A stretch of 64,000 nt of DNA from the NCBI GenBank assembly GCA_040905465.1, contig JBBDRK010000049.1:128001-192000 (forward strand), read 5' to 3'. The DNA comes from Trueperaceae bacterium. GTDB lineage: Bacteria > Deinococcota > Deinococci > Deinococcales > Trueperaceae. The notes beneath the pieces were generated by a model, which ran no database searches, was not told where the DNA came from, and worked only from the letters and a program-made list of their open reading frames with translations. Of this stretch, positions 29,431 through 50,537 are shown in pieces (position 1 is the stretch's first letter; each line of letters begins with the position of its first letter). The position numbers were made by a program, and so were the translations under genes.

Positions 29431-30408
29431 ATGAAAGTTCTGTTTTCAGGCTTGGCAACGGCGCTCGTGCTACTTGCCGGAACCGCTGCCGCCCAGGACG
29501 ACCGTTTGGTCAATGTGGGCATGGAGGCGGTCGGGACGTTCTCCTGGATCAACTTCGCTATGGAGCACTACGGCATCGATGAGGAGCTCGGCTTCGACAT
29601 CGAAACCACCAGTTATGCGACGAAACAGGCCAAGCAGTTGGCGCTGCAGTCCGGAGAGTCCGACCTGGTTGTCGACGACATCACCGGCGTTGCGCTATGG
29701 CACGAACAGGGGCTCGACGTGAAGGGCGTCTACCCATACAGCCTCGCTACCGGCGGGGTGGTGGTAAGGGCCGACAGCGACATCCATAGTATTGCCGACC
29801 TTCGCGGGCGCACCATCGCCGCCACAGACCTCGGCGACAAGAGCCTGCTGATCCTGCGCTCGCTGGCGGTCGGAGAGCACGGCTTCGACCCACAGGAAGA
29901 CGGCGAAGTCGTGGCCGCCGCGCCACCGCTGATGTCGGAGTTGCTGGCGCGCGGCGAAATCGACGCCGCCATTCCGCCCTGGCACTTCGTCGCCCGAATG
30001 GTCGGCACCGGCGATTTCCGCGAGATCGTCTCGGCAGTGGACATGCTCGGCGAGCTCGGAGCTTCGCAAGACATGCCGATCCTTATGGTCGCCGCGCGCA
30101 CCGACATGGACCCGGCGCTGCTCAGCGACTACCTTCAGGCGATGAACATGACCATCGAACGCATGCGAGGCGACGACGAGATCTTCGAACTGATCCTCGA
30201 GGAGGAGCTTTACAGCCTGCCCGATCGGTCGGTGTTCCCACAGGTGATCGAACGCTGGGAGGCGGGGATTCCGCAACGCTGGGACCAGGACGTGATTGAC
30301 GGTATCGTCGAGCTCATCGACGACATGGTCGACCTGGCGGGAACCGAGGTCGTGGGCGTTCAGGGTGGCGACGCTGACGCGTTCACGGCGGAGTTCAATC
30401 CGGAGTAA
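29431..30408 (+). CDS. NitT/TauT-type ABC substrate-binding protein, PqqT-like (candidate PQQ-binding)
   Basis: Signal peptide; GTFSW..., PYS..GG.VV..DS.I.SIADL.G, DKSLLIL, APPLM.E.L..GEIDA...WHFVAR match my recollection of the PqqT-type SBPs encoded next to PQQ dehydrogenases. Confidence 0.8.
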   Translation: MKVLFSGLATALVLLAGTAAAQDDRLVNVGMEAVGTFSWINFAMEHYGIDEELGFDIETTSYATKQAKQLALQSGESDLVVDDITGVALWHEQGLDVKGVYPYSLATGGVVVRADSDIHSIADLRGRTIAATDLGDKSLLILRSLAVGEHGFDPQEDGEVVAAAPPLMSELLARGEIDAAIPPWHFVARMVGTGDFREIVSAVDMLGELGASQDMPILMVAARTDMDPALLSDYLQAMNMTIERMRGDDEIFELILEEELYSLPDRSVFPQVIERWEAGIPQRWDQDVIDGIVELIDDMVDLAGTEVVGVQGGDADAFTAEFNPE

Positions 30409-30520
30409 CCGTCGTGGCAAGAGAGGGACCGGGACTGGCTGAACCGGGCATGAGCACATGATGGCGCTCTGGCAGCGAACGCGCCGGGACAGTTCATCGT
30501 TTCTACAACCTGAACGATTT

Positions 30521-30552
30521 TCGCGGGACCTCCTGGCCACGAGGTCCCGCGA
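30521..30552. other. Perfect 12-bp stem-loop between the SBP and permease genes (mRNA stability or attenuation)
   Basis: TCGCGGGACCTC-ctggccac-GAGGTCCCGCGA. No following U-tract. Confidence 0.55.
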
Positions 30553-30640
30553 GTCGGCTACGCGAGACACACGCGCTTCTCTCCTGACGCCTCCGCCGGA
30601 TGCGGCCATCGCACGGATTGCGTGATAGCTTTTTAGCGAG

Positions 30641-31507
30641 GTGCCCCGAAGCGAGGTTGGGTTGAGACAGGCAAGCCGGAGCGAGCAGCGGAGCGGGGGC
30701 GAGAACTCGAACCGAGCCGGTAAACGGCCGAAGATCGACCCGCTGACATTGGAGAACTGGCTCTATCGGCCGGCGTCGTTGCTCTCCATCGTCCTGGTCT
30801 GGCTGGTGCTCGCGCGGATACTGGGCGAACAGATACTGCCCGGTCCCGTGAGTACATTCGAGTTCCTGTGGAGTCAATTGGAGCGCGGCGCGTTGACGCG
30901 CCACATAGGCATCACCATGTACCGGGTACTCGTGGCATTCAGCGTCGCCATGGTGCTCGGCGTCGTCCTCGGCATGCTGATGGGTTTATCGCGCGTCGTG
31001 GACCGGCTGATGGAGGCATGGCTGATCGTCGGCCTCACGGTTCCCAGGATAATGCTCTTCGTGGTCGCCTATCTCATGCTCGGCCTCAACGACACCTCCG
31101 CGATCGTCGCACTGGTGTTCACCGTCATTCCCACGATCATCGTGCAGTTGCGCGAGGGCACCCGTGCCGTCGACCAGAAACTGGTGGAGATGGCGCGAGC
31201 CTACCGCCGATCGGACTTCACGATCTGGCGCCAGGTAATCTTCCCCCAACTGCTGCCTTACTTCATCGGAACGGCGCGCGGCGCCTTGTCGCTGGCCTGG
31301 AAGATGGTCATCCTCGCCGAACTGCTGGGGCGAACCAGCGGAGTCGGCTACCAGATCACCTTCTACTTCCAGATGTTCAACATGCGGGGGATCCTTGCCT
31401 ACGGGGTTGCCATGATGCTGGTGCTGGCCGTTATCGACCTGACGTTTGTCGGCCTTACCCAGCGCTTCGGCTTCCGCTGGCGGCGCTCCGGAAGGTACAC
31501 CGGTTAG
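30641..31507 (+). CDS. NitT/TauT-type ABC permease
   Basis: ILPGP, HIGITMYRV, EGTRAVDQKLVEMARAY, AWKMVILAELLG...GVG. Start uncertain. Confidence 0.9.
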   Translation: MPRSEVGLRQASRSEQRSGGENSNRAGKRPKIDPLTLENWLYRPASLLSIVLVWLVLARILGEQILPGPVSTFEFLWSQLERGALTRHIGITMYRVLVAFSVAMVLGVVLGMLMGLSRVVDRLMEAWLIVGLTVPRIMLFVVAYLMLGLNDTSAIVALVFTVIPTIIVQLREGTRAVDQKLVEMARAYRRSDFTIWRQVIFPQLLPYFIGTARGALSLAWKMVILAELLGRTSGVGYQITFYFQMFNMRGILAYGVAMMLVLAVIDLTFVGLTQRFGFRWRRSGRYTG

Positions 31508-31514
31508 TCGCGCG

Positions 31515-32294
31515 ATGGCCGGGATCCTGGTTTCAGGCGTAAGCAAGAGTTACATTCTGCCCGACGGCAGCGAGCGGCAGGCTCTCGACGAGATCGACCT
31601 GAAGATCGACGACGGCGAGTTCGTATGCCTGCTCGGACCCTCGGGCTGCGGCAAGACGACACTGCTGAACATCCTCAGCGGTCTCGACCGCGACTACCGG
31701 GGGAGCGTGGAGTTCACCGGTACCGGGGAGCCGGTATTCAGCTATATGTTCCAGGAGTCTCGGCTGTTGCCCTGGCTCACCGTTCGGGAGAACCTGCGCT
31801 TCGTTCTGGACCAGGAACAGCGAGGACAGCCGGGCCGGACCATGATCGACGACTGGCTCGAGCGGGTCGGCCTGGCAGCCTCCGGCGGAGACTACCCGTC
31901 ACAACTGTCCGTGGGAATGCAGCAGCGCGTGGCGCTGGTCCGGGCGTTGATAGTGGGACCGGAAGCGCTGTACATGGACGAGCCGCTCAGCTCCCTCGAT
32001 GAGCTCACCGCCTCGCAGATGAGGGATGAGTTGCTGGCGCTGTGGCAGGAGCAGTGCCCGACAGTCGTGTTCGTGACCCACAATCCGTTGGAGGCCGTCT
32101 ACCTGGCCGACCGCGTGCTGATAATGAGTCCACGACCCGGGCGCATCATCCGAGAGCTGCGGGTGAGCCAGGAGCTTCCGCGTCCGCGGAGTGCCGAGGA
32201 TGACCGGCTATGGAAACTCTCTCGGCAGTGTGTGCGGATCCTCCGGGGAGAGACGAGCGGGCACCCCGAAGCTGAGTACGAGGTAGGCGGCTGA
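31515..32294 (+). CDS. NitT/TauT-type ABC ATP-binding protein
   Basis: [47 protein letters not shown]. Confidence 0.92.
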   Translation: MAGILVSGVSKSYILPDGSERQALDEIDLKIDDGEFVCLLGPSGCGKTTLLNILSGLDRDYRGSVEFTGTGEPVFSYMFQESRLLPWLTVRENLRFVLDQEQRGQPGRTMIDDWLERVGLAASGGDYPSQLSVGMQQRVALVRALIVGPEALYMDEPLSSLDELTASQMRDELLALWQEQCPTVVFVTHNPLEAVYLADRVLIMSPRPGRIIRELRVSQELPRPRSAEDDRLWKLSRQCVRILRGETSGHPEAEYEVGG

Positions 32295-32448: not shown

Positions 32449-33417
32449 ATGCGAAGGTTCTACGTCCTTTTGTTCGTAGCAGTCGGCATGGGTATGTTGC
32501 TGGCCGCCGCGCAGGAGACCGACACCCCGAGCATCGAGGCGGCCGAACACGACCAGCTCGGCAAGTATCTTACCGATTCCGAGGGGCGCGCTCTATATCT
32601 GTTCCGGAACGACGAAAGAGGCGGGCCGAGCACCTGTTACGACGGTTGTGCCGAGAACTGGCCGCCGGTCGTGTTCGAGGGTTCTTTGAGGGCGGGCGAG
32701 GGCGTCGCCGAATCGCTACTGGGCACCGTGGAGCGTGACGACGGTTCGTTGCAGGCTACGTATTACGGCTGGCCGCTCTACTACTTCGCTCGAGACGAAG
32801 CTCCTGGCGATACCAACGGCCAGGGAGCAGGCGACGTATGGTTCCTCGTTTCCCCCTACGGTGAGGCGGTAGAGCCGCGCGACGAGGCGACAGCCGCCGG
32901 TGACGAGGGTGGCAAGCCAGCCGCGGCGGAAGGCGTCGACACCGAGGACGTCACCCAGGACGAAGGCGCGGAGCGCGACGAGGCTGCAGCCGAGCCGGAC
33001 GACGAGGGCGGCAAGCCCGCCGCGGCCAAGGGCGTCGACACCGAGGACGTCACCCAGGACGAAGCGGGCGAGAAGGCGGAGCCCACGGAAGAGGAGGGCG
33101 ACGGGGCAGATGGGGCCGAGACAGAGGAGATACCGAGCGACGTGATGGCCCAGGGTCAAAGCGTCTATCGCGCTAATTGCGCCACCTGCCATGGAGCGGA
33201 AGGTGGCGGCGGCTCGGGGCCCGCCCTGGCGGGCAATTCGCGCCTGGGGAACGAAAGTCGCGTGCTCAACCAGATTCTGAATGGTGGTTCGTTCATGCCG
33301 CCGTTCGGTGGTCAACTCTCCGATGAGGAGGTTGCGGCCGTCGCCACTCACATCCGAAATTCGTGGGGCAACGACTTCGGCCTCACGACTGCCGAGGAGG
33401 TGAGCGAGGCGCGCTAG
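32449..33417 (+). CDS. Secreted COG4315 (Lipoprotein_15 repeat) domain + acidic linker + class I cytochrome c
   Basis: Signal peptide; LTDSEGRALY...CYDGCAENWPP...RDDGSLQATYYGWPLYYF..D..PGD..GQG; CATCH heme motif with MPPF axial Met and IRNSWGN. Confidence 0.88.
   Translation: MRRFYVLLFVAVGMGMLLAAAQETDTPSIEAAEHDQLGKYLTDSEGRALYLFRNDERGGPSTCYDGCAENWPPVVFEGSLRAGEGVAESLLGTVERDDGSLQATYYGWPLYYFARDEAPGDTNGQGAGDVWFLVSPYGEAVEPRDEATAAGDEGGKPAAAEGVDTEDVTQDEGAERDEAAAEPDDEGGKPAAAKGVDTEDVTQDEAGEKAEPTEEEGDGADGAETEEIPSDVMAQGQSVYRANCATCHGAEGGGGSGPALAGNSRLGNESRVLNQILNGGSFMPPFGGQLSDEEVAAVATHIRNSWGNDFGLTTAEEVSEAR
32902..33065 (+). repeat. Direct repeat (99-bp period) encoding DEGGKPAAAxGVDTEDVTQDE twice in the linker
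   Basis: gacgagggtggcaagccagccgcggcggaaggcgtcgacaccgaggacgtcacccaggacgaag versus the near-identical copy from 33001. Confidence 0.85.
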
Positions 33418-33497: not shown

Positions 33498-35192
33498 ATG
33501 GTTCGAACTACTTCGAAAATCAGCCTACGAGGCCTTTTGGCGGCGCTCGTGTGTCTGGCGCTGGCGGCACCGCTGGCCCTGGCGCAGACGGCGGATGAGC
33601 TGCTTGACCCGGATCCGGCCGACTGGCCCACCTACGGCCGCACACTCGACATGGCTCGCTTCAGTCCGCTCGACGAGATCAATCGCGACAACGTAGACAA
33701 CCTGAGGTTGGCCTGGAGCCGTGGGCTTCAGTTCGTAATCGACGCGCAGTTCTCTCCCGTCGTCTACGACGGCGTCATGTATATAAACGCTCCGGATCAG
33801 GTTCAGGCGCTCGACGCGGCCACCGGAGAACTGCTGTGGGATTACGAAGCCGAGCTTCACGAGAACACCCACTTCCTCACCAGCAGCCGCAGCCGCGGCA
33901 GCGTCGTCGTCTTCGACGGAATGGTCTTTCATGCCTTGGGTGACGGTCGGCTCGTCGCGCTCGACGCGCAGAGCGGCGAGGAGTTGTGGAGCACGCCGGT
34001 CGGCCAGATCGAGGTCGGCGAGGGCTTCTCCTCCGGCCCGATATTCGCGGACGGCAAGATCATAGTCGGGCCCTCCGGCGCCGACGCGGGAGGTGCTCCC
34101 GGGCGCGTGCTGGCGCTGGACTCGGAGAACGGCGAGATTCTCTGGACGTTCAACACCGTGCCGCGTCCGGGCGAGCCAGGCTTCGAAACGTGGGACCCGC
34201 CGTCCGCGGCGGAATGGGGCGGCGGCTCCTCCTGGGTCCCCGGCGTCTACGATCCGGAAACTCGGACGGTCATCTACGGAGTCGGGCAGCCGATCCCGTG
34301 GTGGGCCGGCGAGCAGCGCCAAGGCGACAACCTCTACACCTCCAGCTACGTCGCCATGGACGTCGACACCGGTGAGCTCAAGTGGTACCACCAGGTCATA
34401 CCTCAGGACGAGTGGGACTACGACCTCATCAATACGCCGATCATCGCCGACCTGGAGATAGACGGCGAGACCAGGCGTTCAGCCATCATCGCTACCGTCA
34501 CCGGTTTCGTCATCGTTCTCGACGCCGACACCGGCGAGTTCCTGGCCCATCACCAGATGCATCCGGACAACACGGTGCACCTCGGGTACGAGGACGACGG
34601 CACGCCGATCATCGATGACGACATGCGCTGGGCCGCGGACGAGGCGGGCGAATCCCGGACGGTCTGCCCGCTGCGCTGGGTGGACTTCGAGCCGGCGGCG
34701 TTCAACGCCGACACCGGGGTCTACTTCCGCCCGAATACCCACGAGTGCTATGAGATGACCAACGCTCCTCAGCCGGACGACTGGGTCCCCGGCGAGGATC
34801 CGAACAACGCCCAACTCGAGGTCCTGCCCGACTCGTTCGACCGCCTGGGCGGCCTCACGGCGATGGACCCCGTCTCCGGCGACGTGCTGTGGGAGTGGAC
34901 CTTCGGTTACTCTCAGCGTAGCGGCGTCGTCGCTACTGCCGGCGACCTGGTCTTCATGGGCTCGCCCGATCGCGGTTTCCGTGCGTTCGATGCCGAAACG
35001 GGCGACGTACTCTGGCAACAGCGGTTGACCGCCTACATCCAGGCAAACCCGATCACCTACTCGGTAGATGGCAAGCAGTACGTGGCCATTCCGGTAGGCG
35101 GGGAGGGCCCGCTGGTCATTGCGCGCCAGAGCGACCAGCCGCCGATCGTTACCTCCGACGTGTCGATCTTCGTGTTCGCGCTGCCCGACTAG
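33498..35192 (+). CDS. PQQ-dependent dehydrogenase (8-blade propeller), divergent, unknown substrate
   Basis: Signal peptide; DWPTYG...RFSPL.EIN..NV..L.LAW, ALDA.TGE.LW repeats, GGGSSW, DNLYTSS, YHQVIPQDEWDYD, P.TY..DGKQYVA, FVFALP. Confidence 0.9.
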   Translation: MVRTTSKISLRGLLAALVCLALAAPLALAQTADELLDPDPADWPTYGRTLDMARFSPLDEINRDNVDNLRLAWSRGLQFVIDAQFSPVVYDGVMYINAPDQVQALDAATGELLWDYEAELHENTHFLTSSRSRGSVVVFDGMVFHALGDGRLVALDAQSGEELWSTPVGQIEVGEGFSSGPIFADGKIIVGPSGADAGGAPGRVLALDSENGEILWTFNTVPRPGEPGFETWDPPSAAEWGGGSSWVPGVYDPETRTVIYGVGQPIPWWAGEQRQGDNLYTSSYVAMDVDTGELKWYHQVIPQDEWDYDLINTPIIADLEIDGETRRSAIIATVTGFVIVLDADTGEFLAHHQMHPDNTVHLGYEDDGTPIIDDDMRWAADEAGESRTVCPLRWVDFEPAAFNADTGVYFRPNTHECYEMTNAPQPDDWVPGEDPNNAQLEVLPDSFDRLGGLTAMDPVSGDVLWEWTFGYSQRSGVVATAGDLVFMGSPDRGFRAFDAETGDVLWQQRLTAYIQANPITYSVDGKQYVAIPVGGEGPLVIARQSDQPPIVTSDVSIFVFALPD

Positions 35193-35323: not shown

Positions 35324-37387
35324 ATGAACTCCCTGCGCCGAAGAGGCGGACCTATCGAGATCCCGACACTGCTCGTGGCTCTTCTGTCGGTACTGCTCAT
35401 GAATCCTCACGCTCATGGGCAGAACGGCTGGGAGATGCGTGTCTGCGCCGATCCCGCCGCCTACCCCTTCTCCAGTCGCGAAAGTGCCGGGATCGACAAC
35501 CGGATTGCCCAGATCCTGGCGGACGAACTGTCGGCGGAGCTGAGCTACGTGTGGACGCCGATCAACCTTGGCGCGGTGAGGCAACACCTGCATCCTGGCG
35601 ACTGCGATCTGCTCATGGGAGTGGCCGAAGGCGCCGAGGGCGTGCTGAACACGATTCCCTACTACCAGGCTCCCTTCGTGTTCGTTTACCGGCAAGATTC
35701 CGGCCTCGAGCTGCGGTCGCTGGAAGACGAAAACCTGCGGGAGCTGCGGATAGCTGTGAACCCCAACGGCCTGGCTCAGTTCGCGCTTAGCGAGTTGGGC
35801 CTGGGGGGAAGCGCGGTTACCGTGCGCCCAAACCGCGCCGTACGTGGCGCCGAGCGGATAACGCCTCTCATCGATCGTGTACTGGAGGGGGAGGTAGACG
35901 CGGCGATCGTCTACGGTCCGGAAGCCGCCCCCTTCGTCCGGGAGCACCCGGCCGAGCTGCAGATCGAGCCGGTGACGCCACAGATCGTGCCACCCCTGAT
36001 CCAGATGTTCCGGATCGTGACCATGGGAGTGCGCCCCGGTGACGAGGCGTTCCGGGACCGTCTCAACATCGCACTCGGAAAGCGCTGGGAGGAGATCCAG
36101 GCGGTCTTCGAGGAGTTCGGCGTGCCCCTGACCCAGTTGCCGGCGCCGTTCGTGGCGGAACAGGTTCAGGAAAACCTGATCCGGATCGGGGCCGTCCTGC
36201 CTGTCACGGCGGGCCAGCCGGGGATCAGCGACCCGCTCGGAAACGCTGCCCGATTGGGTGCTCTGATTGCGGAAGACACGATAGCGAGAGGAGCGGCGGC
36301 GAGCGAAGCCGGCGCAGCCAACAGCGCTCCCAAGGTACTGATCGCCAGCAGCCCCAGTGCCGCGGCGGCCGAGAGAGCGGCCGAGCGGATGATAGCAACC
36401 GAGGACGTCGTCGCTATTATCGGTGGATTGGGAAGCGAGCAGGCCTTCGCTTTGAACGGGGTGGCTGCCGAGCGCGACGTGCTGTTCTTCAACCTAGGCG
36501 CCATCGACGCCGAGTTGCGCGGGGCGGAGTGCAGCCGCAACACCTTCCACATCGAGGCGAGCGCGGCCATGTATCTCGACGCGCTGGCCGAGTGGTTCAG
36601 CCAGGCCGGTCATGCTCGCTGGTTGGTCGTATACGAAGGATCGGAGGAGGGCCGCGAGCTCCTGGAGCAAGCTCTACTGGCGGTGGACGGAGTCGACTCC
36701 GAGGTGGTGGGCGAGATCGAGCTGCCGCCGGGACCCGCCGCCTACCAGGAAGGTTTCAGCGCTATCGAGGAGGAGCAAGCCGACCTCGTGTTGCTGTTGC
36801 TGGCTCCGCGCGATCAGGAACTCTTCCTCTCCCAGTACGGTGTCCAGGGGCCGGACGTCACCGTGACCGGCATGCCGTTCCCGGTGATGCAGACCCGCGA
36901 TTACCTCGGGCGACTCCAGCAGTCCGCACCGCCTGGCGCACGTTTCCGGGCAGCACTATGGGATACCACGCTGGCGGACCACGGAGCGGAGGAGCTGAAC
37001 GAGCGCTTCGTCTCTCGCTCGGGAGAGCCGATGGATCCCTCCGGTTGGGCAGCTTACGCCGCGATCCGGATCATCCACCATGCCGCGAACGAGGCGTCGG
37101 GAACGGAGACCGGGCAACTGGTCGACTACCTGGAGAGCCCCGCTGCCGAGTTCAACCTGCACAAGGGACCTGGGACTACCTTTCGTCCACACAACCACCA
37201 ACTGCGGCAACCGCTGTATATGATCGAGTTGGACCCGGATGCGCCGTGGGGACGCGAAGTGTCGAGCCGAATTGCGTTGGCGGATCTCGCCGGGCAGCTT
37301 CCGCGAGAGCCCGACGGCGATGCTTACCTCGAGCGGCTCGACCGGCTGGGCGAAAGCGGGGAGCAGGATTCCTGCGACTTCCAATAG
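35324..37387 (+). CDS. Fusion: XoxJ/MxaJ-like binding domain + PQQ-ADH-system (LutA/PedA1-like) binding domain
   Basis: N-half MRVCADP..YPFS...GIDNRIA.ILA.EL, CDLLMGV, T.PYY, DAAIVYGP.A, MGVRPGD. C-half type I PBP ending GWAAYAAI...HKGPGTTFRPHNHQLRQPLY. Confidence 0.8.
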   Translation: MNSLRRRGGPIEIPTLLVALLSVLLMNPHAHGQNGWEMRVCADPAAYPFSSRESAGIDNRIAQILADELSAELSYVWTPINLGAVRQHLHPGDCDLLMGVAEGAEGVLNTIPYYQAPFVFVYRQDSGLELRSLEDENLRELRIAVNPNGLAQFALSELGLGGSAVTVRPNRAVRGAERITPLIDRVLEGEVDAAIVYGPEAAPFVREHPAELQIEPVTPQIVPPLIQMFRIVTMGVRPGDEAFRDRLNIALGKRWEEIQAVFEEFGVPLTQLPAPFVAEQVQENLIRIGAVLPVTAGQPGISDPLGNAARLGALIAEDTIARGAAASEAGAANSAPKVLIASSPSAAAAERAAERMIATEDVVAIIGGLGSEQAFALNGVAAERDVLFFNLGAIDAELRGAECSRNTFHIEASAAMYLDALAEWFSQAGHARWLVVYEGSEEGRELLEQALLAVDGVDSEVVGEIELPPGPAAYQEGFSAIEEEQADLVLLLLAPRDQELFLSQYGVQGPDVTVTGMPFPVMQTRDYLGRLQQSAPPGARFRAALWDTTLADHGAEELNERFVSRSGEPMDPSGWAAYAAIRIIHHAANEASGTETGQLVDYLESPAAEFNLHKGPGTTFRPHNHQLRQPLYMIELDPDAPWGREVSSRIALADLAGQLPREPDGDAYLERLDRLGESGEQDSCDFQ

Positions 37388-37436: not shown

Positions 37437-38972
37437 ATGATCGAAATGGTCGACAGGCTGCGCCGGAGCCGCACCCGTTTTCGTCGTCGGTTACTGCTGG
37501 CCGGCGCGATCAGGAGCGTGACGGCTGCCTTGGCGCTGTTCGTCGTCCTCGAGGGTTCCCGGCGGCTCGCCCGCGCCTTGGGCACCGCGCCGGAGGTAGA
37601 AACCGGCCACCTCCTGTGGCTGGCGCTCGCCGCCCTGCTGGCCTTCCTCACCGTCGCTGCCGTCCAGGCGTGGCGGAATGTACCCACGCTGCTCGGCATT
37701 GCCCAACTCGCCGACGCGCGCTACGACCTGCTCGAACGCGTGACCACGGCGTTTGAAACGCTCCAACGCGGGGCCGAAACCCCGGTTCAGAAGGCGTTGC
37801 TCGACGACGCCGCTGCGCGCTCGCGGCAGATCGACCCGGCAGAGCTCGTACCGAACTCACTTCCCTGGCCAATCTGGCCTTCGGTGGCGCTGACGGGCGT
37901 CGCCATGGTCCTGATCCTCCTCCCACAGCCCGCCGCACTCGCCCCCGACAGCCGCACGGCATCGACAGCGAATATGGAGGGCTCGACGCCGGAGGGAAGG
38001 ATCGAAGAAACCGGCGCCAAGGTGAGGCGCGTGGCGGAACTGGTTGGCCGAGACGCCGAGGCAAGCCGCGACCCCTACCTGCAGGCCGTTGCCAGGTCGT
38101 TCGATGACCTCGGCAGGCGAATAGAGGCAGGCGAGTTGGGACAAGCCGAAATCGACAATGAGGTCGGCCGCCTGTTACAGCACCTCGAGCGGGCACTGGG
38201 CGGAGACGACGCCGCTGCCTCGGCCGGACTGCTCGGCTACGGAGCTGAAAACCGCGGCGATGCGGGCCCCGGCGGCTCCCGAACCGACGCGGACGTTGCG
38301 CCGGAAGGGGCCGCCACAACGGACACCGAGCCGGCAGTCGATGAGGCCACCGGCCGGCAGGATCGGTCGAATGGTGAGGTCTCCAGCAGCACGGCCGGCG
38401 AGCAGGACACTGCTACCGGCCTCGACGAGCTACTGAACCGCCTCCAGGCGCGTCTGGAGGCCCGCGAGCCGGAGGACCGGCCGCCGCAGCCCCGGACTCA
38501 GTCGGCGGAAAACGATTCGGCCGGCGGCTTCTATACCGACATCGATCCAGACCTGGTTGCCGAGATCGAGGAGCGGCAGAACCGACTTACGCGGCAACGG
38601 GCCGAGAATCGAGCCGGTGGAGAACCGGTAGGGGCGGCAGAAGAGTCGAACGAAGGGCCGGGGGATCTGGCCGGGGAGGGAGCCCAACCTCTCGGTATTG
38701 GGGCGAACGGCGTGCCCGAGTCCGATAGTGAGCGGTTCGACCCTCTGCAACTGCCCGGGGGCCGGCAGGCCGATGGCCGCCGCATCCGGATAGAGATTCC
38801 ACCGGACGCCGAGTTCACGGAGGTGGACGCCCTAGCCGAACCGATGAGTGGTGGCTGGCGACGTAGCCGCGGGGGAACTTCCGCCGGAACGCTTCTCGGT
38901 ATGATGGACCGTGACGTCGTAAGCCGTTACTTCATGCCACAGGAAGAGAATCGAGACGGCGCTCGCCGCTAG
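37437..38972 (+). CDS. Membrane-anchored coiled-coil/acidic protein of MoxR-VWA clusters (DUF4175-like)
   Basis: Three N-terminal TM segments, AD.RY.L.ER.TTA.E motif, helical acidic body, C-terminal RDVVSRYF. Confidence 0.7.
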   Translation: MIEMVDRLRRSRTRFRRRLLLAGAIRSVTAALALFVVLEGSRRLARALGTAPEVETGHLLWLALAALLAFLTVAAVQAWRNVPTLLGIAQLADARYDLLERVTTAFETLQRGAETPVQKALLDDAAARSRQIDPAELVPNSLPWPIWPSVALTGVAMVLILLPQPAALAPDSRTASTANMEGSTPEGRIEETGAKVRRVAELVGRDAEASRDPYLQAVARSFDDLGRRIEAGELGQAEIDNEVGRLLQHLERALGGDDAAASAGLLGYGAENRGDAGPGGSRTDADVAPEGAATTDTEPAVDEATGRQDRSNGEVSSSTAGEQDTATGLDELLNRLQARLEAREPEDRPPQPRTQSAENDSAGGFYTDIDPDLVAEIEERQNRLTRQRAENRAGGEPVGAAEESNEGPGDLAGEGAQPLGIGANGVPESDSERFDPLQLPGGRQADGRRIRIEIPPDAEFTEVDALAEPMSGGWRRSRGGTSAGTLLGMMDRDVVSRYFMPQEENRDGARR

Positions 38973-38992
38973 GCCGGGCGCTCGTTTACGGG

Positions 38993-40044
<1,052 letters not shown>

Positions 40045-40048
<4 letters not shown>

Positions 40049-40923
40049 GCCTCCTTCCGCCGAGAGTGCTGCAGAAGCTCGCTCGCTCGCGCCTCCAGCC
40101 GATATGGGCGACCCCGCGGGCCGGCGTGGGCGAAAGACGCTCGAGGGCCAAGGGTTCCGGAATCGAGTTTGCGGACCACCGTGAATACCAGCCGGGGGAC
40201 GACATCAGGCACCTCGATCGCCACGCCTACTCGCGACTGGGACGGCACGTCATCAAGCAGTATTCGCTCTATCAGCAGCTTCAGGTAACCGTTTTGATCG
40301 ACAGCAGCGCCTCGATGGGGTTCGGGACACCGGCGAAACTCCGGCGGGCAGCCGAGCTCGCGGGCATCGTCGCGTACGCGGGACTGAGCGGCGGCGACCG
40401 AGTGCTGGTGGGGGCTTTCTCCGGCGGCAGCGTCAAGTGGCATCGACACCTGGAAGGTACCCGCCGAGCAGCTGCGCTCTTCCGTTGGCTGGAGCAGCTG
40501 CGACCGGAGGGCTCGTCGCGCGTCGCCGAGTCGGCTCGGGCCAGCGCCCGTCGCCTCGGCAGCTCCGGCCTGCTGGTGGTGATCAGCGACTGGCTGGACG
40601 ACGGATTGGCGGCGGCTCTCTCGGCGTGGCGGCGAGCCGGCCAGGAGCTGGTAGGGGTGAGGCTGCTGGCGCCTGAGGAGCTCGAACCCGAGCGCATGGG
40701 CGACGGCCCGGTCCGGCTGTTCGACGTCGAGTCCGGCCAGGAGGTAGAGGCGTCGCTGGACGCCGGCGGCTACGCGAGCTACCGGAAGGCGCTGGCCGAC
40801 TGGGAGCGACGGCTGCGCGACGCGCTCTTCGTGCAGGAGGGGCGGCTGTTCTCGGTTCGCAGCGACGATGATCTGGAACGCACCGTCCTGACCGAGTGGC
40901 GGGTGAAGCAGCTGATTTCATGA
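40045..40923 (+). CDS. DUF58 family protein (MxaS-like VWA partner)
   Basis: GSGIEFADHREYQPGDDIRHLD, LIDSSASM, VVISDW. Confidence 0.92.
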
Positions 40924-43900
40924 GCATCGGCAACCCATGGTGGCTGCTCTTGCTGGGACTCGCCTTGCTGGTGGTCGTGCTTCACGCCCGGCGGCGCCGC
41001 GAGCTTCCGGTGTCGAGCATTCTCCTGTGGCGCCACCTCGCGAGCCATGGCTCGAGCCGGCCCCAGCGTCGGTTTCCGCCTATAACGCCGCCGCTGCTGC
41101 TCCAACTGCTGGCACTGATCCTCCTGATCTCGGCACTGGCGCAACCCTACTTGCGCACGACCGATAGTTCACCGGACCACCTGGTCGTCGTGATCGACGC
41201 CTCGGCCAGCATGCACGCAAGCGACGTATCGCCGTCCCGCCTAGGTGCCGCTCGCGCAGCTGGCCACGACCGACTTGCGGCGCTTCCGACGAGCGCACGC
41301 GGCACGGTGATCGAGGCCGGAGCGAACCCGGTTGCAACGTCAGCCAGGCTTGGTGCCGGAAACGCGGCGGCGCAACTGGAACGCTCCGCCGTGAGCTCTG
41401 GACCTATCGCCGGCGAGCGGGCGGGCGGGGCGGGCGAGGGGGGCGCGGGCCCGGCCGATTGGCACGCCGCGGCGAGGTTGGCGGCCGGCACGATACGACC
41501 TGGGGAGAGGACTCTGGTTCTGCTCCTCAGCGACCCTTCAGGCGTCGACGCAGCCGGTCAGGCGCTGCAGGCGGAAATTCCCGACGTCGAGATCGTGACG
41601 CGCGAGTTCGCCGGCAGCAGGGTCCGGAACGTCGGCTTTGCCGACGTCCGGCCTGAGCCGCTTGACCTCGACGGCGGGCACTGGAGTGTGACCGGAGAGG
41701 TGGTCAGCGCCGGCGCCGCTGGCGAGACGACCGAAATGCGAGTGCTGTTCGAGCCGGAAGGGAGCGAGGGGGCACTCGCCTGGGACACGTTGGAGCTCGA
41801 GCCGGTGGACGGTGAGGCGCTGGAGTTCGAGTTGGAGCTAGAGCTTCCCGGGCCGGGATCACTGGAGCTTCGACTGCCCGACGACGATCTGAACGTCGAC
41901 AATCGGGCTCGGTTCATTCTGCGGGAAGGGCGCGTGAGCGCCCGGGTGCTACACGTGGGCCCCGAGAATCCCGAACTTCAGCGAGCGCTACAGGCGATCG
42001 ACGCCGTAGAGCTGTTCCGCGCCGAGTCGCTGCCGGCCGACAACGCCGAGTACGACCTCGTCATCGTCGACCGGACCGAGGTGGATCGCCGGCCGGATAC
42101 CAACGTCTTGTGGATCGCCGCCTCGCGCCACCGCGCCAGACCCAACGCGATGTTGTCGGAGCCGGACCCGAGCGGCTGGCGAAGCGATCATCCGCTTGCC
42201 GCCTCGATGGACTGGAGCTCGCTCACCGTGTCGGCCGCTCGCGATGTAGGTCTTCTACAGGGAGCAACCGTGCTGCTCGAGGCACGGGGGGCGCCGCTGA
42301 TCCAGGTCCGCACCGTCGACGAGCACACCGAGGTCGTCCTGTCTTTCGCATTGCGGGACAGCAACTGGCCTTCTCAGCTCGGCTTCCCGTTGTTCGTATC
42401 CAACCTGGTTCGAACGGCGCAACCGGCGCTGGGCCGGGCGGTCCTCTCCCTCGACGCCTTCCACCCCAGGGAAAGCATTCTTGCCGGCGGGACCGGCACA
42501 CGCGAGGCGGCCGCGGCTTCCGGTCCGCTTGACTGGCCACTGTGGCGTTGGCCCGTTTGGCGTTGGCTCGTGCTGGCCACGTTCGTCGTCGTTGTCCTCG
42601 AAGCGCTGATCGCGGGCCTGGCAAGCGAACGATACCTCCGGCGACAAGCGCTCGGCGCCGGCAATCCACTGGCCGGCCGCCACCGCACCACAGTTGCCTT
42701 ACAGGCCGGAGCTGCTGCGCTCCTGCTCCTGGCGCTCCTGTCCGTCTCCGTGCCGTTTCCCGGCCGACAGGCGCAAACCGTCCTGATCGTCGAGGATGAG
42801 CGGTTCCTGACCGGCGAGGCAACTGAAGGCCGCGAGGAGACGGGCCGCTCTTCGCTGGACTTCCTGGATGACGACGCGGCGACCGGTGCCGGGATCGTAC
42901 GCCTGGGAGCGCCGAGCACCATAGTCAGGGACGCCGGAAAGAGGGGTAGGCCTACCTCAGCGCCAGCCGGAGTTGCGGGAGCCGATCTCGAATCGGCGAT
43001 CGACCTGGCAGCTGGAATGCTTGCCTCGGGAATGCTTGCTGCTGGAACGACTGCTTCGGAAACGCAGGCCACTGGAACGCAAGCCGCCGGTGCGCGGGGA
43101 GGCGCCGAGCAGGGCAGGATCGTAATAGTCGGCGGAGCTCTGTCGACTGTCGGCGAAGCGTCGAGGAGTGTTCCAGGGCTCGTCGCCAGCGGCATCACCG
43201 TCGACGTCTTACCACCGGGAGGGATTCCAGCGGGCGAGTCGCTGGTCGAGGAGGTCGTTGCCCCCGAGCGACTTCACCCTTCACAGACCTTCCGGCTCGA
43301 GGGAATCGTCTTCAGCGAGAGTGCCCAACAGGCTTCGGTGACCCTGTACCGCGACGGCGAGGTGCTGGTGGAACGGGAAGTACACCTGGAGGCCGGCCGC
43401 AACCGGGTCGAGACGGAGGCCGACGAGGAGGAAGCAGGCACCTACCTGTACGAAGTAGAAGTCGACTCGCAAGGCGACGTCTTCAGCGAAAACAATCGGG
43501 CCGGGCAGATGGTGCGCGTCCTGGCACCGCCGTCGGTCTTGTTGGTGTCGCCCCAGGCCGAGTGGGCGGAACTGTTTGCCGACGCCCTCCTGATTCAGGG
43601 CGTCGAGGCCGAGATCAACGAACCGCTTGCCGCGCCGTGGAATATCGAGGGCTGGCTCGAGCACGACGTGGTGGTCCTGATGAACGTCCCGGCGCTGGAC
43701 CTGCATTCGACCCAGCAGGAGTTGCTGGCGACTTGGGTAACCGAGCACGGCGGCGGCCTGCTGATCCTGGGTGGCGAGAACAGCTTCGGACCCGGCGGTT
43801 ACTATCAGACGCCTCTGGAGGACCTCTCTCCCCTTTCAAGCCAGGTGCCGCGCGAGGCGCCGGCGGTCGCGATGCTCTTCGTGCTCGACCGTTCCGGCAG

Positions 43901-45275
43901 CATGCAGCAACAGGTGGGTGAATCGACACGGCTCCAGATCGCCAAGGAGGCCACGATCGAAGCAATCGACCTCCTCGGTGAGGAGAGCCTCACCGGCGTA
44001 GTGGTGTTCGATTCCGAGTCGACGGTCCTGGCCCCGATCCAGCCGGTCGAAAACAGGGACGCGATTGCGGCGGAGCTCGAGCTGCTCGGTCCTAGCGGCG
44101 GCACGGCGATCCAACCGGCTCTGGAGCAGGCCCTGGAGCAGATGCGCGGCGTCGATGCCTCGACGCGCCACGTGGTGCTGATGACCGACGGCCTGTCCCA
44201 ACAAGGGCAGTTCACGGCGGTCATGGAGGGCTTCGAAGCGGCGGAGACGACGGTCAGCAGCGTGGCGATCGGCAGCGGCGCGGACACCGCCCTGCTGCAG
44301 CAGATTGCCCGGGCCGGCGGCGGAACGTTCCACAGCACCACCGATTTCAGGGCTCTTCCCAGCATCCTCGCCCAGGAAGCGCTGCTGCTCTCGGGGACTC
44401 CGATCGAGGAGACCAGCTTCCAGCCGCAGTGGGCCGACCGGGGGGTAGAGTTCCTGGCGGCACTGCCGGAAGACTTGCCGCCGCTCCACGGTTACGTCCT
44501 GACGACCCCCAAGGGCGGGGCCGACGTTCACCTGTTGGCGCCCGACGACGACCCGGTCCTCGCTTCGTGGCGGCACGGCCTTGGCCGGGTGGTCGCGTTC
44601 ACATCTCACGGTGCAGGCTCCTGGAGTCGCGACTGGTTGTCGATGACGGAGTTCCCGCTCCTGTGGGCCCAGGCGGTACGCTGGACCCTTCCCCAGGTTG
44701 CCGGACCCGGCCTCACGCCGCGAGTGAGTTGGCGAGGCGACGAGGCGCAACTGCTCGTCGATGCAATCGACGCTCAGGGTCGACCGCTCTCCGAGCTGGC
44801 TGTCGAGGCGGAGATCGAGGCGCTGGAGGACTCGCAGGGCGATCGGCGGCTCGTGCTGCAAGAAACCGACCGGGGAAGGTATGAGGGCACTGTTGAACTG
44901 ACGAGCGAGGCGACCTACCGGCTGACGGCCCGGACGGTAAGCGACCCGTTCCAAACAGCCGAAGAGCTCGAGCCCGCCGTTTTGCTGTTTCGCGCCTCCT
45001 ACCCTGCCCGCTATGCATTCAGCCGCCAAGACGCGAGCGAACTCCTGGCCATCAGCGAGTCGACTGGTGGCCAGGTCCTCTTCTCGACCGAGGACCTGCC
45101 GGCAACCTCGTGGCGCTGGCGCTGGCAACCCCTGGAGGCGTGGCCGTTTTGGCTGCTCCTCGCGCTGACGCTGTTCATGCTCTCGCTGTTCTCCCGCTAC
45201 GCTCCCCGCTTCCGTCGCAAACCGCTTGGGAAGCGTTCCGCGGGCTCGCGGAGGTCTGCGGCCGAGGCGGGTTGA
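40920..45275 (+). CDS. Large membrane-anchored BatA + multi-VWA + GATase1-like protein
   Basis: ATGA overlap with DUF58. N-terminal BatA-like (NPWW...VSSILLW...LLQLLAL..L..ALAQP); MIDAS motifs DASASM and DRSGSM; LMTDG; GGGLLILGGENSFGPGGY; WRHGLGRVVAFTS; internal and C-terminal TM helices. Confidence 0.88.
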   Translation: MSIGNPWWLLLLGLALLVVVLHARRRRELPVSSILLWRHLASHGSSRPQRRFPPITPPLLLQLLALILLISALAQPYLRTTDSSPDHLVVVIDASASMHASDVSPSRLGAARAAGHDRLAALPTSARGTVIEAGANPVATSARLGAGNAAAQLERSAVSSGPIAGERAGGAGEGGAGPADWHAAARLAAGTIRPGERTLVLLLSDPSGVDAAGQALQAEIPDVEIVTREFAGSRVRNVGFADVRPEPLDLDGGHWSVTGEVVSAGAAGETTEMRVLFEPEGSEGALAWDTLELEPVDGEALEFELELELPGPGSLELRLPDDDLNVDNRARFILREGRVSARVLHVGPENPELQRALQAIDAVELFRAESLPADNAEYDLVIVDRTEVDRRPDTNVLWIAASRHRARPNAMLSEPDPSGWRSDHPLAASMDWSSLTVSAARDVGLLQGATVLLEARGAPLIQVRTVDEHTEVVLSFALRDSNWPSQLGFPLFVSNLVRTAQPALGRAVLSLDAFHPRESILAGGTGTREAAAASGPLDWPLWRWPVWRWLVLATFVVVVLEALIAGLASERYLRRQALGAGNPLAGRHRTTVALQAGAAALLLLALLSVSVPFPGRQAQTVLIVEDERFLTGEATEGREETGRSSLDFLDDDAATGAGIVRLGAPSTIVRDAGKRGRPTSAPAGVAGADLESAIDLAAGMLASGMLAAGTTASETQATGTQAAGARGGAEQGRIVIVGGALSTVGEASRSVPGLVASGITVDVLPPGGIPAGESLVEEVVAPERLHPSQTFRLEGIVFSESAQQASVTLYRDGEVLVEREVHLEAGRNRVETEADEEEAGTYLYEVEVDSQGDVFSENNRAGQMVRVLAPPSVLLVSPQAEWAELFADALLIQGVEAEINEPLAAPWNIEGWLEHDVVVLMNVPALDLHSTQQELLATWVTEHGGGLLILGGENSFGPGGYYQTPLEDLSPLSSQVPREAPAVAMLFVLDRSGSMQQQVGESTRLQIAKEATIEAIDLLGEESLTGVVVFDSESTVLAPIQPVENRDAIAAELELLGPSGGTAIQPALEQALEQMRGVDASTRHVVLMTDGLSQQGQFTAVMEGFEAAETTVSSVAIGSGADTALLQQIARAGGGTFHSTTDFRALPSILAQEALLLSGTPIEETSFQPQWADRGVEFLAALPEDLPPLHGYVLTTPKGGADVHLLAPDDDPVLASWRHGLGRVVAFTSHGAGSWSRDWLSMTEFPLLWAQAVRWTLPQVAGPGLTPRVSWRGDEAQLLVDAIDAQGRPLSELAVEAEIEALEDSQGDRRLVLQETDRGRYEGTVELTSEATYRLTARTVSDPFQTAEELEPAVLLFRASYPARYAFSRQDASELLAISESTGGQVLFSTEDLPATSWRWRWQPLEAWPFWLLLALTLFMLSLFSRYAPRFRRKPLGKRSAGSRRSAAEAG

Positions 45276-45500: not shown

Positions 45501-46256
45501 ATGCGATTCGTTTTGTCGTCATCTGCCTTCCTGGTCCTGTCCCTGGCGCTCGTCGGCGCCCAGGAGGCCGGCGAAGCAACGGTGCAGGTTGCCGAAAGCG
45601 AGAGTTGGGGCAGCCACCTGACCAACGCCGAGGGTGCCAGCCTCTACCTCTACCTGGAAGACGAAGGCCTCGAGGGCGAGAGTGCCTGCGCCGAGAGTTG
45701 CACCAGGAACTGGCCGCCGCTGACGGTGGACGGCGAGCCCGTCGCCGGTGAAGGCGTGGACGCTGAACTGCTCGGCACCCTCACCCGTGACGACGGCTCG
45801 AGCCAGGTGACCTACGGCGGCTGGCCCCTCTACACTTACGCCCGTGATACCGAGCCGGGCCACACCAAGGGCCAGGGCCTGGGCCGGGTGTTCTTCCTGG
45901 TGTCGCCGGCGGGCGAGCAGGTAACCGAGGAGCTGGTCCAGGAAGCTCCCGAGCTGGATGAGGAAGTGATGGCCCAGTTGATGACCGAGGGCGAGCGCGC
46001 GTTCCGCAACAACTGCGTCGTATGCCATGGAGCTCAGGGCCAGGGCGCCATAGGGCCTCGCCTGGCAGGCAACTCGAACGTGGGCGGTACCGCGTTCCTG
46101 GTCCAGAGGATCATCATCGGCTTCGAGGCACACGGGATGCCACCGTTCGGACACCTCTCGGACGAGCAGATCGCAGCCATATCCACTTTCGTCCGCAACT
46201 CGTGGGGAAATGAGTTCGGTGCCGTCACTTCTGAGGAGGTGAGTAACCTGCGATAA
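45501..46256 (+). CDS. Secreted COG4315 domain + class I cytochrome c (paralog of 32449-33417)
   Basis: LTNAEGASLYLY...CAESCTRNWPP...RDDGSSQVTYGGWPLY; CVVCH, GMPPF, VRNSWGN. AGGAG RBS. Confidence 0.88.
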   Translation: MRFVLSSSAFLVLSLALVGAQEAGEATVQVAESESWGSHLTNAEGASLYLYLEDEGLEGESACAESCTRNWPPLTVDGEPVAGEGVDAELLGTLTRDDGSSQVTYGGWPLYTYARDTEPGHTKGQGLGRVFFLVSPAGEQVTEELVQEAPELDEEVMAQLMTEGERAFRNNCVVCHGAQGQGAIGPRLAGNSNVGGTAFLVQRIIIGFEAHGMPPFGHLSDEQIAAISTFVRNSWGNEFGAVTSEEVSNLR

Positions 46257-46346
46257 GCAACGGACGAACCGGTGTATCCCAAGTCCTCTCCCCCTACGAA
46301 CTTATTCCGCAACGTCTCCTACTCGAAAGGTTTGGTGGCTGTTCAC

Positions 46347-50398: not shown

Positions 50399-50537
50399 TG
50401 GCCCGCGTCGCGCGGATCGCTGAGGGCCACCGCACTTTTCCCGGGGTCACGGTTACATGAGGTGATCGGGCTTACCGTGAATCGATGACCGGTCCGCCGG
50501 GCCGGTGATTCGATCGACGCGAACAGGGGGAGCAGAA

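Follow-up and report, generated by a model that had tools for sequence, protein, structure and literature searches.

A MoxJ/XoxJ-like domain fused to a relative of the PedA1/LutA binding proteins: a candidate assembly unit for lanthanide-type alcohol dehydrogenases

How does a lanthanide reach the active site of a XoxF- or PedH-type dehydrogenase? The route is an open question, and the need of a periplasmic enzyme for cytoplasmic import is discussed in the portion of Wehrmann et al. available to us (PMC6839425). An open reading frame (ORF) from a Trueperaceae bacterium bears on this question. The frame lies at 35324-37387 (+) of a 64,000-nucleotide stretch of contig JBBDRK010000049.1 (hereafter the window), is open throughout and encodes an exported protein of 687 amino acids (aa) that joins a MoxJ/XoxJ-like domain (N-domain) to a type I binding-protein domain (C-domain). 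We place roughly even weight on the reading that this protein is an accessory factor dedicated to its dehydrogenase, an assembly unit that presents a metal or cofactor at the opened active site. The reading draws on computed architecture, gene order, a separate clade, site patterns and a predicted interface between MoxJ and the C-domain. It makes the locus and its relatives a testable candidate for the missing step: a PedA1-like lineage that is off the transporter and tied to an MxaJ-type chaperone, always beside a lanthanide-type dehydrogenase.

The N-domain had been placed in the MxaJ/XoxJ kind from its motifs, and this identification held. RVCADP (aa 39-44), GDCDLLMGV (aa 92-100), TIPYY, YGPEA and TMGVRPGDE all occur in the product, and the domain matches TIGR03871 over model positions 1-231 of 232 with an E value of 2e-57. 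The score of 194.5 bits is below the curated cut-off of 212.15, and from its sequence the domain is best described as a divergent member of the TIGR03871 lineage. Against the MxaJ equivalog model TIGR03870 it scored 122.6 bits and did not reach the cut-off of 258.1; it is related to MxaJ but is not an MxaJ orthologue. Its closest solved relatives are XoxJ (6ONP, E 1.6e-34) and MxaJ (9ISM_B, E 6.4e-23). Consistent with these matches, Foldseek searches with the N-domain model recovered the type II fold of MxaJ and XoxJ, with template modelling (TM) scores by target of 0.80 for 5SV6, 0.78 for 9ISM_B and 0.86 for 6ONP. The L8-loop residues of MxaJ had no clear alignment to the N-domain. Fold and family-level sequence likeness are thus shared with MxaJ and XoxJ (9ISM, 9ISO, 5SV6, 6ONP) and with PedG of Pseudomonas putida (TIGR03871). 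The gene order is shared as well: like its relatives, the N-domain gene directly follows genes for a pyrroloquinoline quinone (PQQ) dehydrogenase and a cytochrome c, and the PQQ-dehydrogenase neighbour expected of a TIGR03871 member is dehydrogenase 1, directly upstream. What sets the fusion apart from MxaJ, XoxJ and PedG is a C-terminal binding-protein domain of about 400 aa.

This second domain follows in the same frame, as the original prediction had it. Pfam Peripla_BP_6 matches aa 346-638 at 128.9 bits, and Foldseek searches with the C-domain model found LivJ-like binding proteins of the type I fold (3I09, 4ZPJ and 3I45; TM scores by target 0.75-0.81). The motif HKGPGTTFRPHNHQLRQPLY lies near the C-terminal end of the fusion. 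C403 and C684 are near-invariant among fusions, and the terminal Cys is invariant in alignment A1. AlphaFold2, given 42 aligned fusions, returned a model with a mean predicted local distance difference test (pLDDT) score of 90.7 and a predicted TM (pTM) score of 0.89. The linker is variable in sequence and, measured from a conserved LPxP to the R[IV]G strand, spans 10-19 residues, with 13 in 26 of the 42 fusions. The pTM score of the model and the conserved linker length are consistent with a fixed arrangement of the two domains. A second fusion in the window (Table 1), 43% identical over its full length, bears out the label of copy 1 given to the first. Moreover, a search of a protein collection with the fusion returned 40 more full-length fusion clusters (629-724 aa, 39-81% identity), 35 stand-alone proteins (383-496 aa, 33-45% identity) and four weak matches (22-25%). 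Because 40 further full-length clusters exist, the fusion is far beyond chance.

The original prediction assigned the C-domain to TIGR03863, the family of PedA1 and LutA. This is indeed its best NCBIfam match and nearest curated family, but the domain reached only 111.7 bits over two stretches, where the cut-off is 413.6, and all 12 of its close relatives that were scanned scored 85.5-139.5 bits. Among the outgroup sequences scanned against the same model, P0077 scored 483.5 bits, above the cut-off, and P0079 scored 403.0, just below it; both are only 24-25% identical to the C-domain. In addition, Paracoccus sediminis and Ruegeria marina each have a true TIGR03863 gene (468 and 501 bits) plus one gene of the C-domain's kind. 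Because the C-domain falls so far below the TIGR03863 cut-off and is only 24-25% identical to P0077 and P0079, and because genes of its kind coexist with true TIGR03863 genes in two Rhodobacterales genomes, we assign it, on sequence grounds, to a sister family of TIGR03863 and not to TIGR03863 proper. Two Devosiaceae and Calidithermus roseus have the sister family alone, with no TIGR03863 gene. No solved member of the sister family was found, the best profile matches in the PDB being 3I09 and 3I45 (E about 1e-19).

The sister family resembles PedA1 (PP_5538) and LutA in its type I, LivJ-like fold. Its transporter-linked members adjoin genes for a YVTN propeller and for the ATPase and permease of an ABC-2 (ATP-binding cassette) system, as pedA1 does in the accessible text of PMC6839425. 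Both PedA1A2BC and LutA-EF are reported there and in the available part of PMC7391723 to be required for lanthanide-dependent growth. The sister family differs in having an extra C-terminal tail that ends in a conserved Cys, and its fused lineage is no longer part of the transporter operon. A parallel system in Deinococcota and Alphaproteobacteria, which consists of a binding protein, a YVTN propeller, a new helical protein and an ABC-2 transporter, escapes the curated PedA1/LutA model.

Gene order across genomes links the C-domain to MoxJ. In a scan of one genome per species (369 relatives), 70 loci were kept and their domains were mapped with our own profiles. MoxJ and C-domain share one stop-to-stop frame in 15 ORFs at 14 loci, from Trueperaceae, Thermaceae, metagenome-assembled genomes (MAGs) labelled Deinococcaceae or Bacillota, and unclassified bacteria. 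Alphaproteobacteria, Meiothermus, Calidithermus chliarophilus and some Trueperaceae encode the two separately, in neighbouring genes. The usual order of cytochrome c, dehydrogenase, MoxJ and C-domain recurs in both Deinococcota and Alphaproteobacteria. The earlier statement that the two domains are normally encoded separately is therefore correct for other genomes, but it overlooked that they are normally neighbours behind a dehydrogenase, and the fusion therefore joins conserved neighbours. Nor is the fusion uncommon. A match was present in 44 of 364 Deinococcota genomes, and 32, this one included, had one uninterrupted match across both domains; the 32 are confined to two families, Trueperaceae and Thermaceae. 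The fusion is kept down to 35-37% identity, often in 2-3 copies per genome, which are lower bounds as at most three candidates were scored in each. NCBI already lists the protein under a name derived from TIGR03871, and both parent families are known. What is new is the sister family with its own transporter system, the distinction between enzyme-linked and transporter-linked lineages, and the predicted complex of MoxJ and C-domain; a literature search in which supplements and InterPro architectures fell outside the scope found no published description of the fusion or of the sister family.

Many genomes have two kinds of copy, one behind MoxJ and one heading a YVTN/ABC-2 operon. In Rhodobacterales and three Thermaceae, a single copy adjoins both MoxJ and the YVTN/ABC genes (13 rows). 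At three loci (L013, L015 and L074) a separate C-domain gene lies directly behind the fused gene; in L015 it sits between the fused gene and the YVTN gene, and the contigs of L013 and L074 end before that point. The genome of the window has three PQQ dehydrogenases of the methanol/ethanol family, three MoxJ_2 matches, four C-domains and one YVTN match. Each of the three dehydrogenases is followed by MoxJ and C-domain, two fused and one split pair with its own signal peptides. The split pair, on contig C74, consists of a 274-aa MoxJ gene (TIGR03871 221.0 bits, above the cut-off) behind a dehydrogenase gene, and a 428-aa C-domain gene that has its own twin-arginine signal and starts two bases past the MoxJ stop codon. 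The fourth C-domain is on contig C36, in the only YVTN/ABC-2 cluster of the genome. Its neighbours are a YVTN propeller (TIGR03866, 224.6 bits), a family-less helical protein, a two-component system, an ABC ATPase (TIGR03864, 222.3 bits) and an ABC-2 permease (TIGR03861, 105.8 bits), and we identify the cluster as a divergent counterpart of pedA1A2BC as described in the text of PMC6839425 at hand. No YVTN propeller or ABC-2 genes are present in the window, and the fusions are without a pedA1-type neighbourhood. The original prediction that no cognate permease or ATPase lies nearby was accordingly right for ped-type genes, but an ABC importer with its own PqqT-like binding protein is encoded upstream, at 29431-32294.

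Phylogeny separates the enzyme-linked copies from the transporter-linked ones. The tree contained 98 C-domains and four outgroup rows and was inferred with IQ-TREE under LG+G4; C-domain matches of fewer than 330 profile positions were excluded (the partial second copies of L023, L031 and L059, the pieces of L044 and the fused L073). The 23 MoxJ-adjacent and 16 fused rows that lack a YVTN neighbour all fall into a single clade, which we call class A, with support of 99 in both the ultrafast bootstrap (UFBoot) and the Shimodaira-Hasegawa-like approximate likelihood ratio test (SH-aLRT). Its sister group consists of the three single-copy rows from Thermaceae, and outside it lie the single-copy rows from Rhodobacterales and the transporter-linked rows (class B). 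Copy 2 falls in a clade of nine rows, eight of them fused (support 100/98). The fused state needs three changes on the best tree, and none of 200 bootstrap trees needs only one. We do not claim recurrent fusion, as a single clade of the 16 fused rows was not rejected by the approximately unbiased (AU) test (p 0.09; the group was named after seeing the tree). Nesting of the alphaproteobacterial class A clade among Deinococcota rows implies, as far as the sequences go, transfer between phyla. The fused and stand-alone C-domains of L013 and L016, from MAGs labelled Bacillota, adjoin Calidithermus roseus and Trueperaceae sequences in the tree, suggesting either mislabelled bins or a cluster that moved between phyla.

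Site patterns distinguish the same groups. Residues at 27 positions reach 90% conservation or more in each of class A, class B and the single-copy forms, and 14 of the 27 are conserved in the outgroup too. Arg, Lys, His, Trp, Gln and Asn abound in this core, which includes N390, R399, H409, R525, W546, K614, R621, R628 and Q629. Class B and the single-copy forms conserve 82 sites, of which 40 are kept and 29 relaxed in class A; conversely, class B keeps 41 of the 69 sites conserved in class A and is relaxed at 18. The relaxed sites of class A cluster in aa 421-435, 541-565 and 641-687 (20/32 versus 8/49 elsewhere, Fisher p 3e-5), and they are relaxed in fused and split members alike. In the C-terminal tail, class A is relaxed at 9 of the 15 sites conserved in transporter-linked forms. 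The relaxed patch could be a lost docking surface for the transporter or its YVTN partner.

Binding between MoxJ and the C-domain was modelled on the split pair of C74, from alignments with 35 rows of such pairs, in three runs and with three controls. The pair gave an interaction prediction score from aligned errors (ipSAE) of 0.62 (runs 0.59, 0.62 and 0.63), and the best of the three controls gave 0.00. Among solved complexes 116 of 157 attain this ipSAE mark, as compared with 2 of 215 mismatched pairs; the use of our own alignments makes both counts approximate. The runs share at least 98% of contacts, and the pLDDT of the partner is at least 81. On MoxJ, the predicted contact surface comprises the first strand, residues 81-87 and the conserved GVRPGDE..D stretch; the corresponding stretch after MGV differs from RPGDE in XoxJ and MxaJ. 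On the C-domain, it takes in the loop that follows strand 1 and the AS.P loop with the helix behind it (P0001 numbering, residues 289, 294-297, 310, 339-345, 347-348, 351-352, 354-356 and 358-359). These 22 of 405 residues include 4 of the 18 sites that class A conserves and class B does not (G297, P344, A348 and R351; odds ratio 5.9, p 0.012), a list compiled before the complex was predicted, and none of the 29 relaxed sites. We know of no solved complex of MoxJ with such a binding protein.

The dehydrogenases next to these genes are of the lanthanide type. D307 and D309 of dehydrogenase 1 are invariant in all 37 aligned linked dehydrogenases, which come from 35 of the 52 locus stretches and from the two of the window, and all carry W-D-x-D. 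The motif is present in all three methanol/ethanol-family dehydrogenases of this genome. The best solved match of dehydrogenase 2 is the XoxF structure 4MAE (E 1e-126), in which Asp299-Tyr-Asp301 aligns to its D-F-D; Asp301 is described in the accessible part of PMC11845868 as the lanthanide-specific ligand. The two copy lineages keep different partners, the copy-1 lineage adjoining type-1 dehydrogenases in 5/5 loci and the copy-2 lineage XoxF-like ones in 7/7 fused loci. A vicinal Cys-Cys pair is present in dehydrogenase 2, and none occurs in dehydrogenase 1.

A scheme can be drawn for how such a unit might work. The N-domain, as an MxaJ/XoxJ-type chaperone, would grip the lid over the active site and keep the pocket open for PQQ. 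In the part of PMC12276312 available to us, MxaJ keeps the lid of MxaF open to let PQQ in, and PQQ binds only the MxaF/MxaJ complex; lid binding and PQQ insertion were shown for MxaJ and would extend to the N-domain by likeness. The class A lineage would have left the transporter operon after a duplication while retaining the conserved core residues of its family. The protein would dock onto lobe 1 of MoxJ through its N-lobe, by way of the loop that follows strand 1, the AS.P loop and helix 346-359. Tethered by a linker of about 13 residues, the C-domain would most likely hold a lanthanide, free or chelated, by the opened active site and hand it over, and insertion of PQQ and of metal would be coupled in one polypeptide. 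The ligand, its hand-over and a ternary complex with the dehydrogenase are what we infer here. The original prediction that the C-domain serves the enzyme and not a transporter thus finds support in the phylogeny, the site patterns and the predicted complex, and its proposal of metal or PQQ binding and delivery stays conjectural.

A more far-reaching proposal, which we advance only tentatively, is that class A represents the missing periplasmic insertase for lanthanide, or for a lanthanide-PQQ complex, of XoxF/PedH-type enzymes. Bound to MoxJ, by fusion in Deinococcota and in a heterodimer in Alphaproteobacteria, it would load the metal while the lid is open. The twin-arginine signals of the split forms could then be speculated to reflect folding, and perhaps loading, in the cytoplasm, which for those forms would explain why a lanthanide is imported into the cytoplasm for a periplasmic enzyme. 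Strict twin-arginine motifs occur in 20/23 split class A members, 12/13 single-copy forms, 7/31 YVTN-linked forms and 2/9 without neighbours, as compared with 0/37 split MoxJ proteins and 1/15 fused N-termini. The fusion thus swaps a twin-arginine translocation (Tat) leader for a Sec-type one. Given these counts (1/15 versus 20/23), we rejected cytoplasmic loading with Tat export for the fused protein. Cultured carriers in which the proposal could be pursued include Calidithermus roseus, Pelagibacterium mangrovi, Paracoccus sediminis and Ruegeria marina.

Several points weigh against an assembly unit that delivers metal. The predictor is a language-model folder to which fused sequences may have taught the domain packing. 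Overall divergence is higher in class A than in class B (mean pairwise identity 0.41 versus 0.49), so part of the asymmetry of 29 versus 18 relaxed sites arises from general divergence. With its many Arg, Lys, His, Trp and Gln residues, the conserved core is a better match for an anionic ligand than for a bare cation. Split class A members carry Tat signals, in contrast to the Sec-type leaders of fusions. In the 13 rows where a single copy lies by both MoxJ and the YVTN/ABC genes, one protein may serve both, and docking on MoxJ and transport need not exclude each other. Disruption of pedG in P. putida caused only modest defects, according to the available text of PMC12997753. Finally, the MoxR/DUF58/VWA module next to the fusion could account for metal insertion alone.

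The 13 single-copy rows also speak for a C-domain that is still a transporter's binding protein. Fused to MoxJ, it would deliver its ligand in trans to the ABC-2 system of C36, and the fusion would do no more than co-express the two domains or place uptake near the enzyme. Basal and single-copy members directly precede genes for the YVTN propeller, the helical protein, the ABC ATPase and the ABC-2 permease, class A keeps the conserved core residues, and lanthanide-dependent growth requires the PedA1A2BC and LutA-EF systems (in the parts of PMC6839425 and PMC7391723 at hand). However, the transporter cluster has its own class B binding protein, both in this genome and at fused loci, the class A clade is without a YVTN neighbour, and class A is relaxed in a localized patch that transporter-linked forms conserve. 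We consider a transporter role unlikely. A purely neutral join of neighbouring genes, in which the domains act independently and the tether has no functional meaning, seems to us improbable. With near-universal adjacency and gaps of 3-150 nt, loss of a stop codon and a signal peptide suffices for fusion, a single origin of the fused forms is unrejected, and other fusions of type II and type I binding proteins exist as leads from an atlas. Neutrality does not sit well with a fusion that persists at 35-37% identity in 32/364 genomes, often in multiple copies, with a conserved linker length, a compact model (pTM 0.89) and predicted binding of the split pair with clean controls. The atlas leads are tandem fusions of SBP_bac_3 or DctP with Peripla_BP_6, which also have two binding folds per chain; they are presumed to be transporter parts, in contrast to the fusion described here, in which one domain is of a known enzyme-chaperone kind and the lineage of its partner is not transporter-linked.

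The nature of the ligand raises a further alternative, one that keeps the architecture. The C-domain could feed PQQ, a PQQ-lanthanide complex or another organic anion into the pocket opened by MoxJ. The basic and aromatic conserved core (R399, H409, R525, W546, W575, K614, R621 and R628) would suit such a ligand, the nearest solved folds include the aromatic-acid binding proteins 4EY3 and 4EVQ, and binding of PQQ to the MxaF/MxaJ complex only, described above (part of PMC12276312), is in keeping with delivery at this point. PQQ is, in addition, probably scavenged. PqqC was not found in this genome, which is 95% complete, or in three other Deinococcota carriers, and the same search found it in 2/2 alphaproteobacterial carriers; on this basis we take the organism to be a probable PQQ auxotroph. 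Its supply may be served by another protein, however. Directly upstream of the dehydrogenase operon are encoded a relative of PqqT, the PQQ-binding protein of M. extorquens (9B1U and 9B1V; available part of PMC11331073), and its own ABC importer, and the relative retains the equivalents of Thr41 and Lys142 of PqqT. A PqqT-like binding protein is found near the clusters in 11/70 loci, and its permease in 10 loci (52-65% identity) plus one weak match. This importer lowers, without removing, the chance that the C-domain binds PQQ. Like the fusion, PqqT is an accessory binding protein of lanthanide and PQQ metabolism, but its fold is type II, NMT1-like and unrelated to either fusion domain. Moreover, pqqC-bearing carriers retain class A too, and the related TIGR03863 system is genetically tied to lanthanide uptake (parts of PMC6839425 and PMC7391723 seen). 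Taken together, we regard PQQ or another organic anion as an unlikely ligand and prefer an assembly unit that would hold a lanthanide.

Both fusions lie within one island of the window, at about 29431-51599, and the remainder of the window encodes ordinary metabolism. The features of the island are collected in Table 1.

Table 1. Features of the fusion protein and its gene island, in positions of the window
Feature	Positions	Strand	Support and remarks
PqqT-like (NMT1/SsuA-type) binding protein	29431..30408	+	Pfam NMT1, Phosphonate-bd; 9B1U/9B1V E 1.7e-21
ABC permease of PqqT-like importer	30641..31507	+	BPD_transp_1; related to SsuC, SaoP
ABC ATPase of PqqT-like importer	31446..32294	+	ABC_tran
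Lipoprotein_15 repeat protein fused to c-type cytochrome	32449..33417	+	PF03640 + Cytochrome_CBB3; weak c550/PedF match
PQQ alcohol dehydrogenase 1, lanthanide type (W-D-Y-D)	33498..35192	+	TIGR03075 416 bits; PDB relatives ADH-IIG, PedE/PedH, XoxF
Signal peptide of fusion copy 1 (aa 1-33)	35324..35422	+	Sec kind by motif; no strict twin-arginine motif; pLDDT <60
MoxJ/XoxJ-like domain (aa 37-269)	35432..36130	+	TIGR03871 194.5 bits; XoxJ 6ONP E 1.6e-34
Linker	36131..36181	+	short; pLDDT 82-86
Type I binding-protein domain (aa 287-640), class A of TIGR03863 sister family	36182..37243	+	Peripla_BP_6; TIGR03863 below cut-off
C-terminal tail with near-invariant C684, and stop codon	37244..37387	+	47 residues
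Membrane-anchored acidic protein, first gene of MoxR module	37437..38972	+	no Pfam/NCBIfam match
MoxR-type AAA ATPase (MxaR-like)	38993..40048	+	AAA_3 194.7 bits
DUF58 protein (MxaS-like)	40045..40923	+	PF01882 92.4 bits
1459-aa BatA/VWA protein (putative MxaA/C/K/L-like role)	40896..45275	+	BatA, VWA_2, VWA
Second Lipoprotein_15 + cytochrome c protein	45501..46256	+	Pfam/NCBIfam scans
PQQ dehydrogenase 2, XoxF-like (W-D-F-D, vicinal Cys-Cys)	46272..48155	+	TIGR03075 518.9 bits, above cut-off
Fusion copy 2 (685 aa)	48341-50398	+	TIGR03871 227.7 bits (above cut-off); TIGR03863 106.3 bits
Exported, very acidic EF-hand-like protein	50505..51599	+	EF-hand families

Behind copy 1, the module at 37437-45275, which here adjoins lanthanide-type enzymes, resembles a condensed version of the MxaR, S, A, C, K and L set, whose members act in calcium insertion into MxaF in the part of PMC12276312 seen. 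A MoxR/DUF58/VWA module near the fusion is a further likeness to the mxa clusters described there. Trueperaceae loci keep the module behind either the fusion or the transporter cluster, and across these loci an acidic membrane protein of the kind encoded at 37437..38972 precedes MoxR.

The acidic protein directly after copy 2 has 364 aa, four EF-hand-like loops (for example DADGDSSLTVGE and DADADGTVSADE) and long GDDA-type repeats. Judged from these loops, it could bind calcium or lanthanides. They are without the Pro at position 2 that we take to be typical of lanmodulin loops. The protein was not found in any of the 70 related loci, and we do not count it among the components of the conserved system.

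The helical protein of the transporter cluster (L011:10847-11929 (-), equivalent to G000 C36:56847-57929) is periplasmic, has 360 aa and is encoded between the YVTN and ABC ATPase genes in most clusters. It has invariant E172, W199, E239 and E242 and two near-invariant Cys. It had no match in Pfam, NCBIfam or PDB sequences. Its AlphaFold2 model was confident (pLDDT 90.1, pTM 0.87), and a Foldseek search with the model returned nothing at E 0.001 or better. VIA-align found only generic four-helix bundles for residues 262-360, with Z up to 12.7, in the range of unrelated helical models. Kinship with a known lanthanide-binding protein was therefore set aside, as no link was seen by Foldseek or VIA-align.

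The dehydrogenase gene of the split pair (G000 C74:23667-26648) is an open frame of 993 aa with a putative N-terminal extension of about 440 aa that is rich in propeller-blade-like repeats. Upstream of it is a multi-haem cytochrome gene (G000 C74:26563-28383), which contains a run of N and is incomplete as read. The cytochromes before both dehydrogenases of the window combine a Lipoprotein_15 (SCO0930-like) repeat domain with a class I cytochrome c, a combination not usually seen as the partner of a PQQ dehydrogenase. By sequence, the first of them is the probable electron acceptor of dehydrogenase 1, and a Lipoprotein_15-cytochrome gene is conserved upstream of the dehydrogenase in most related loci.

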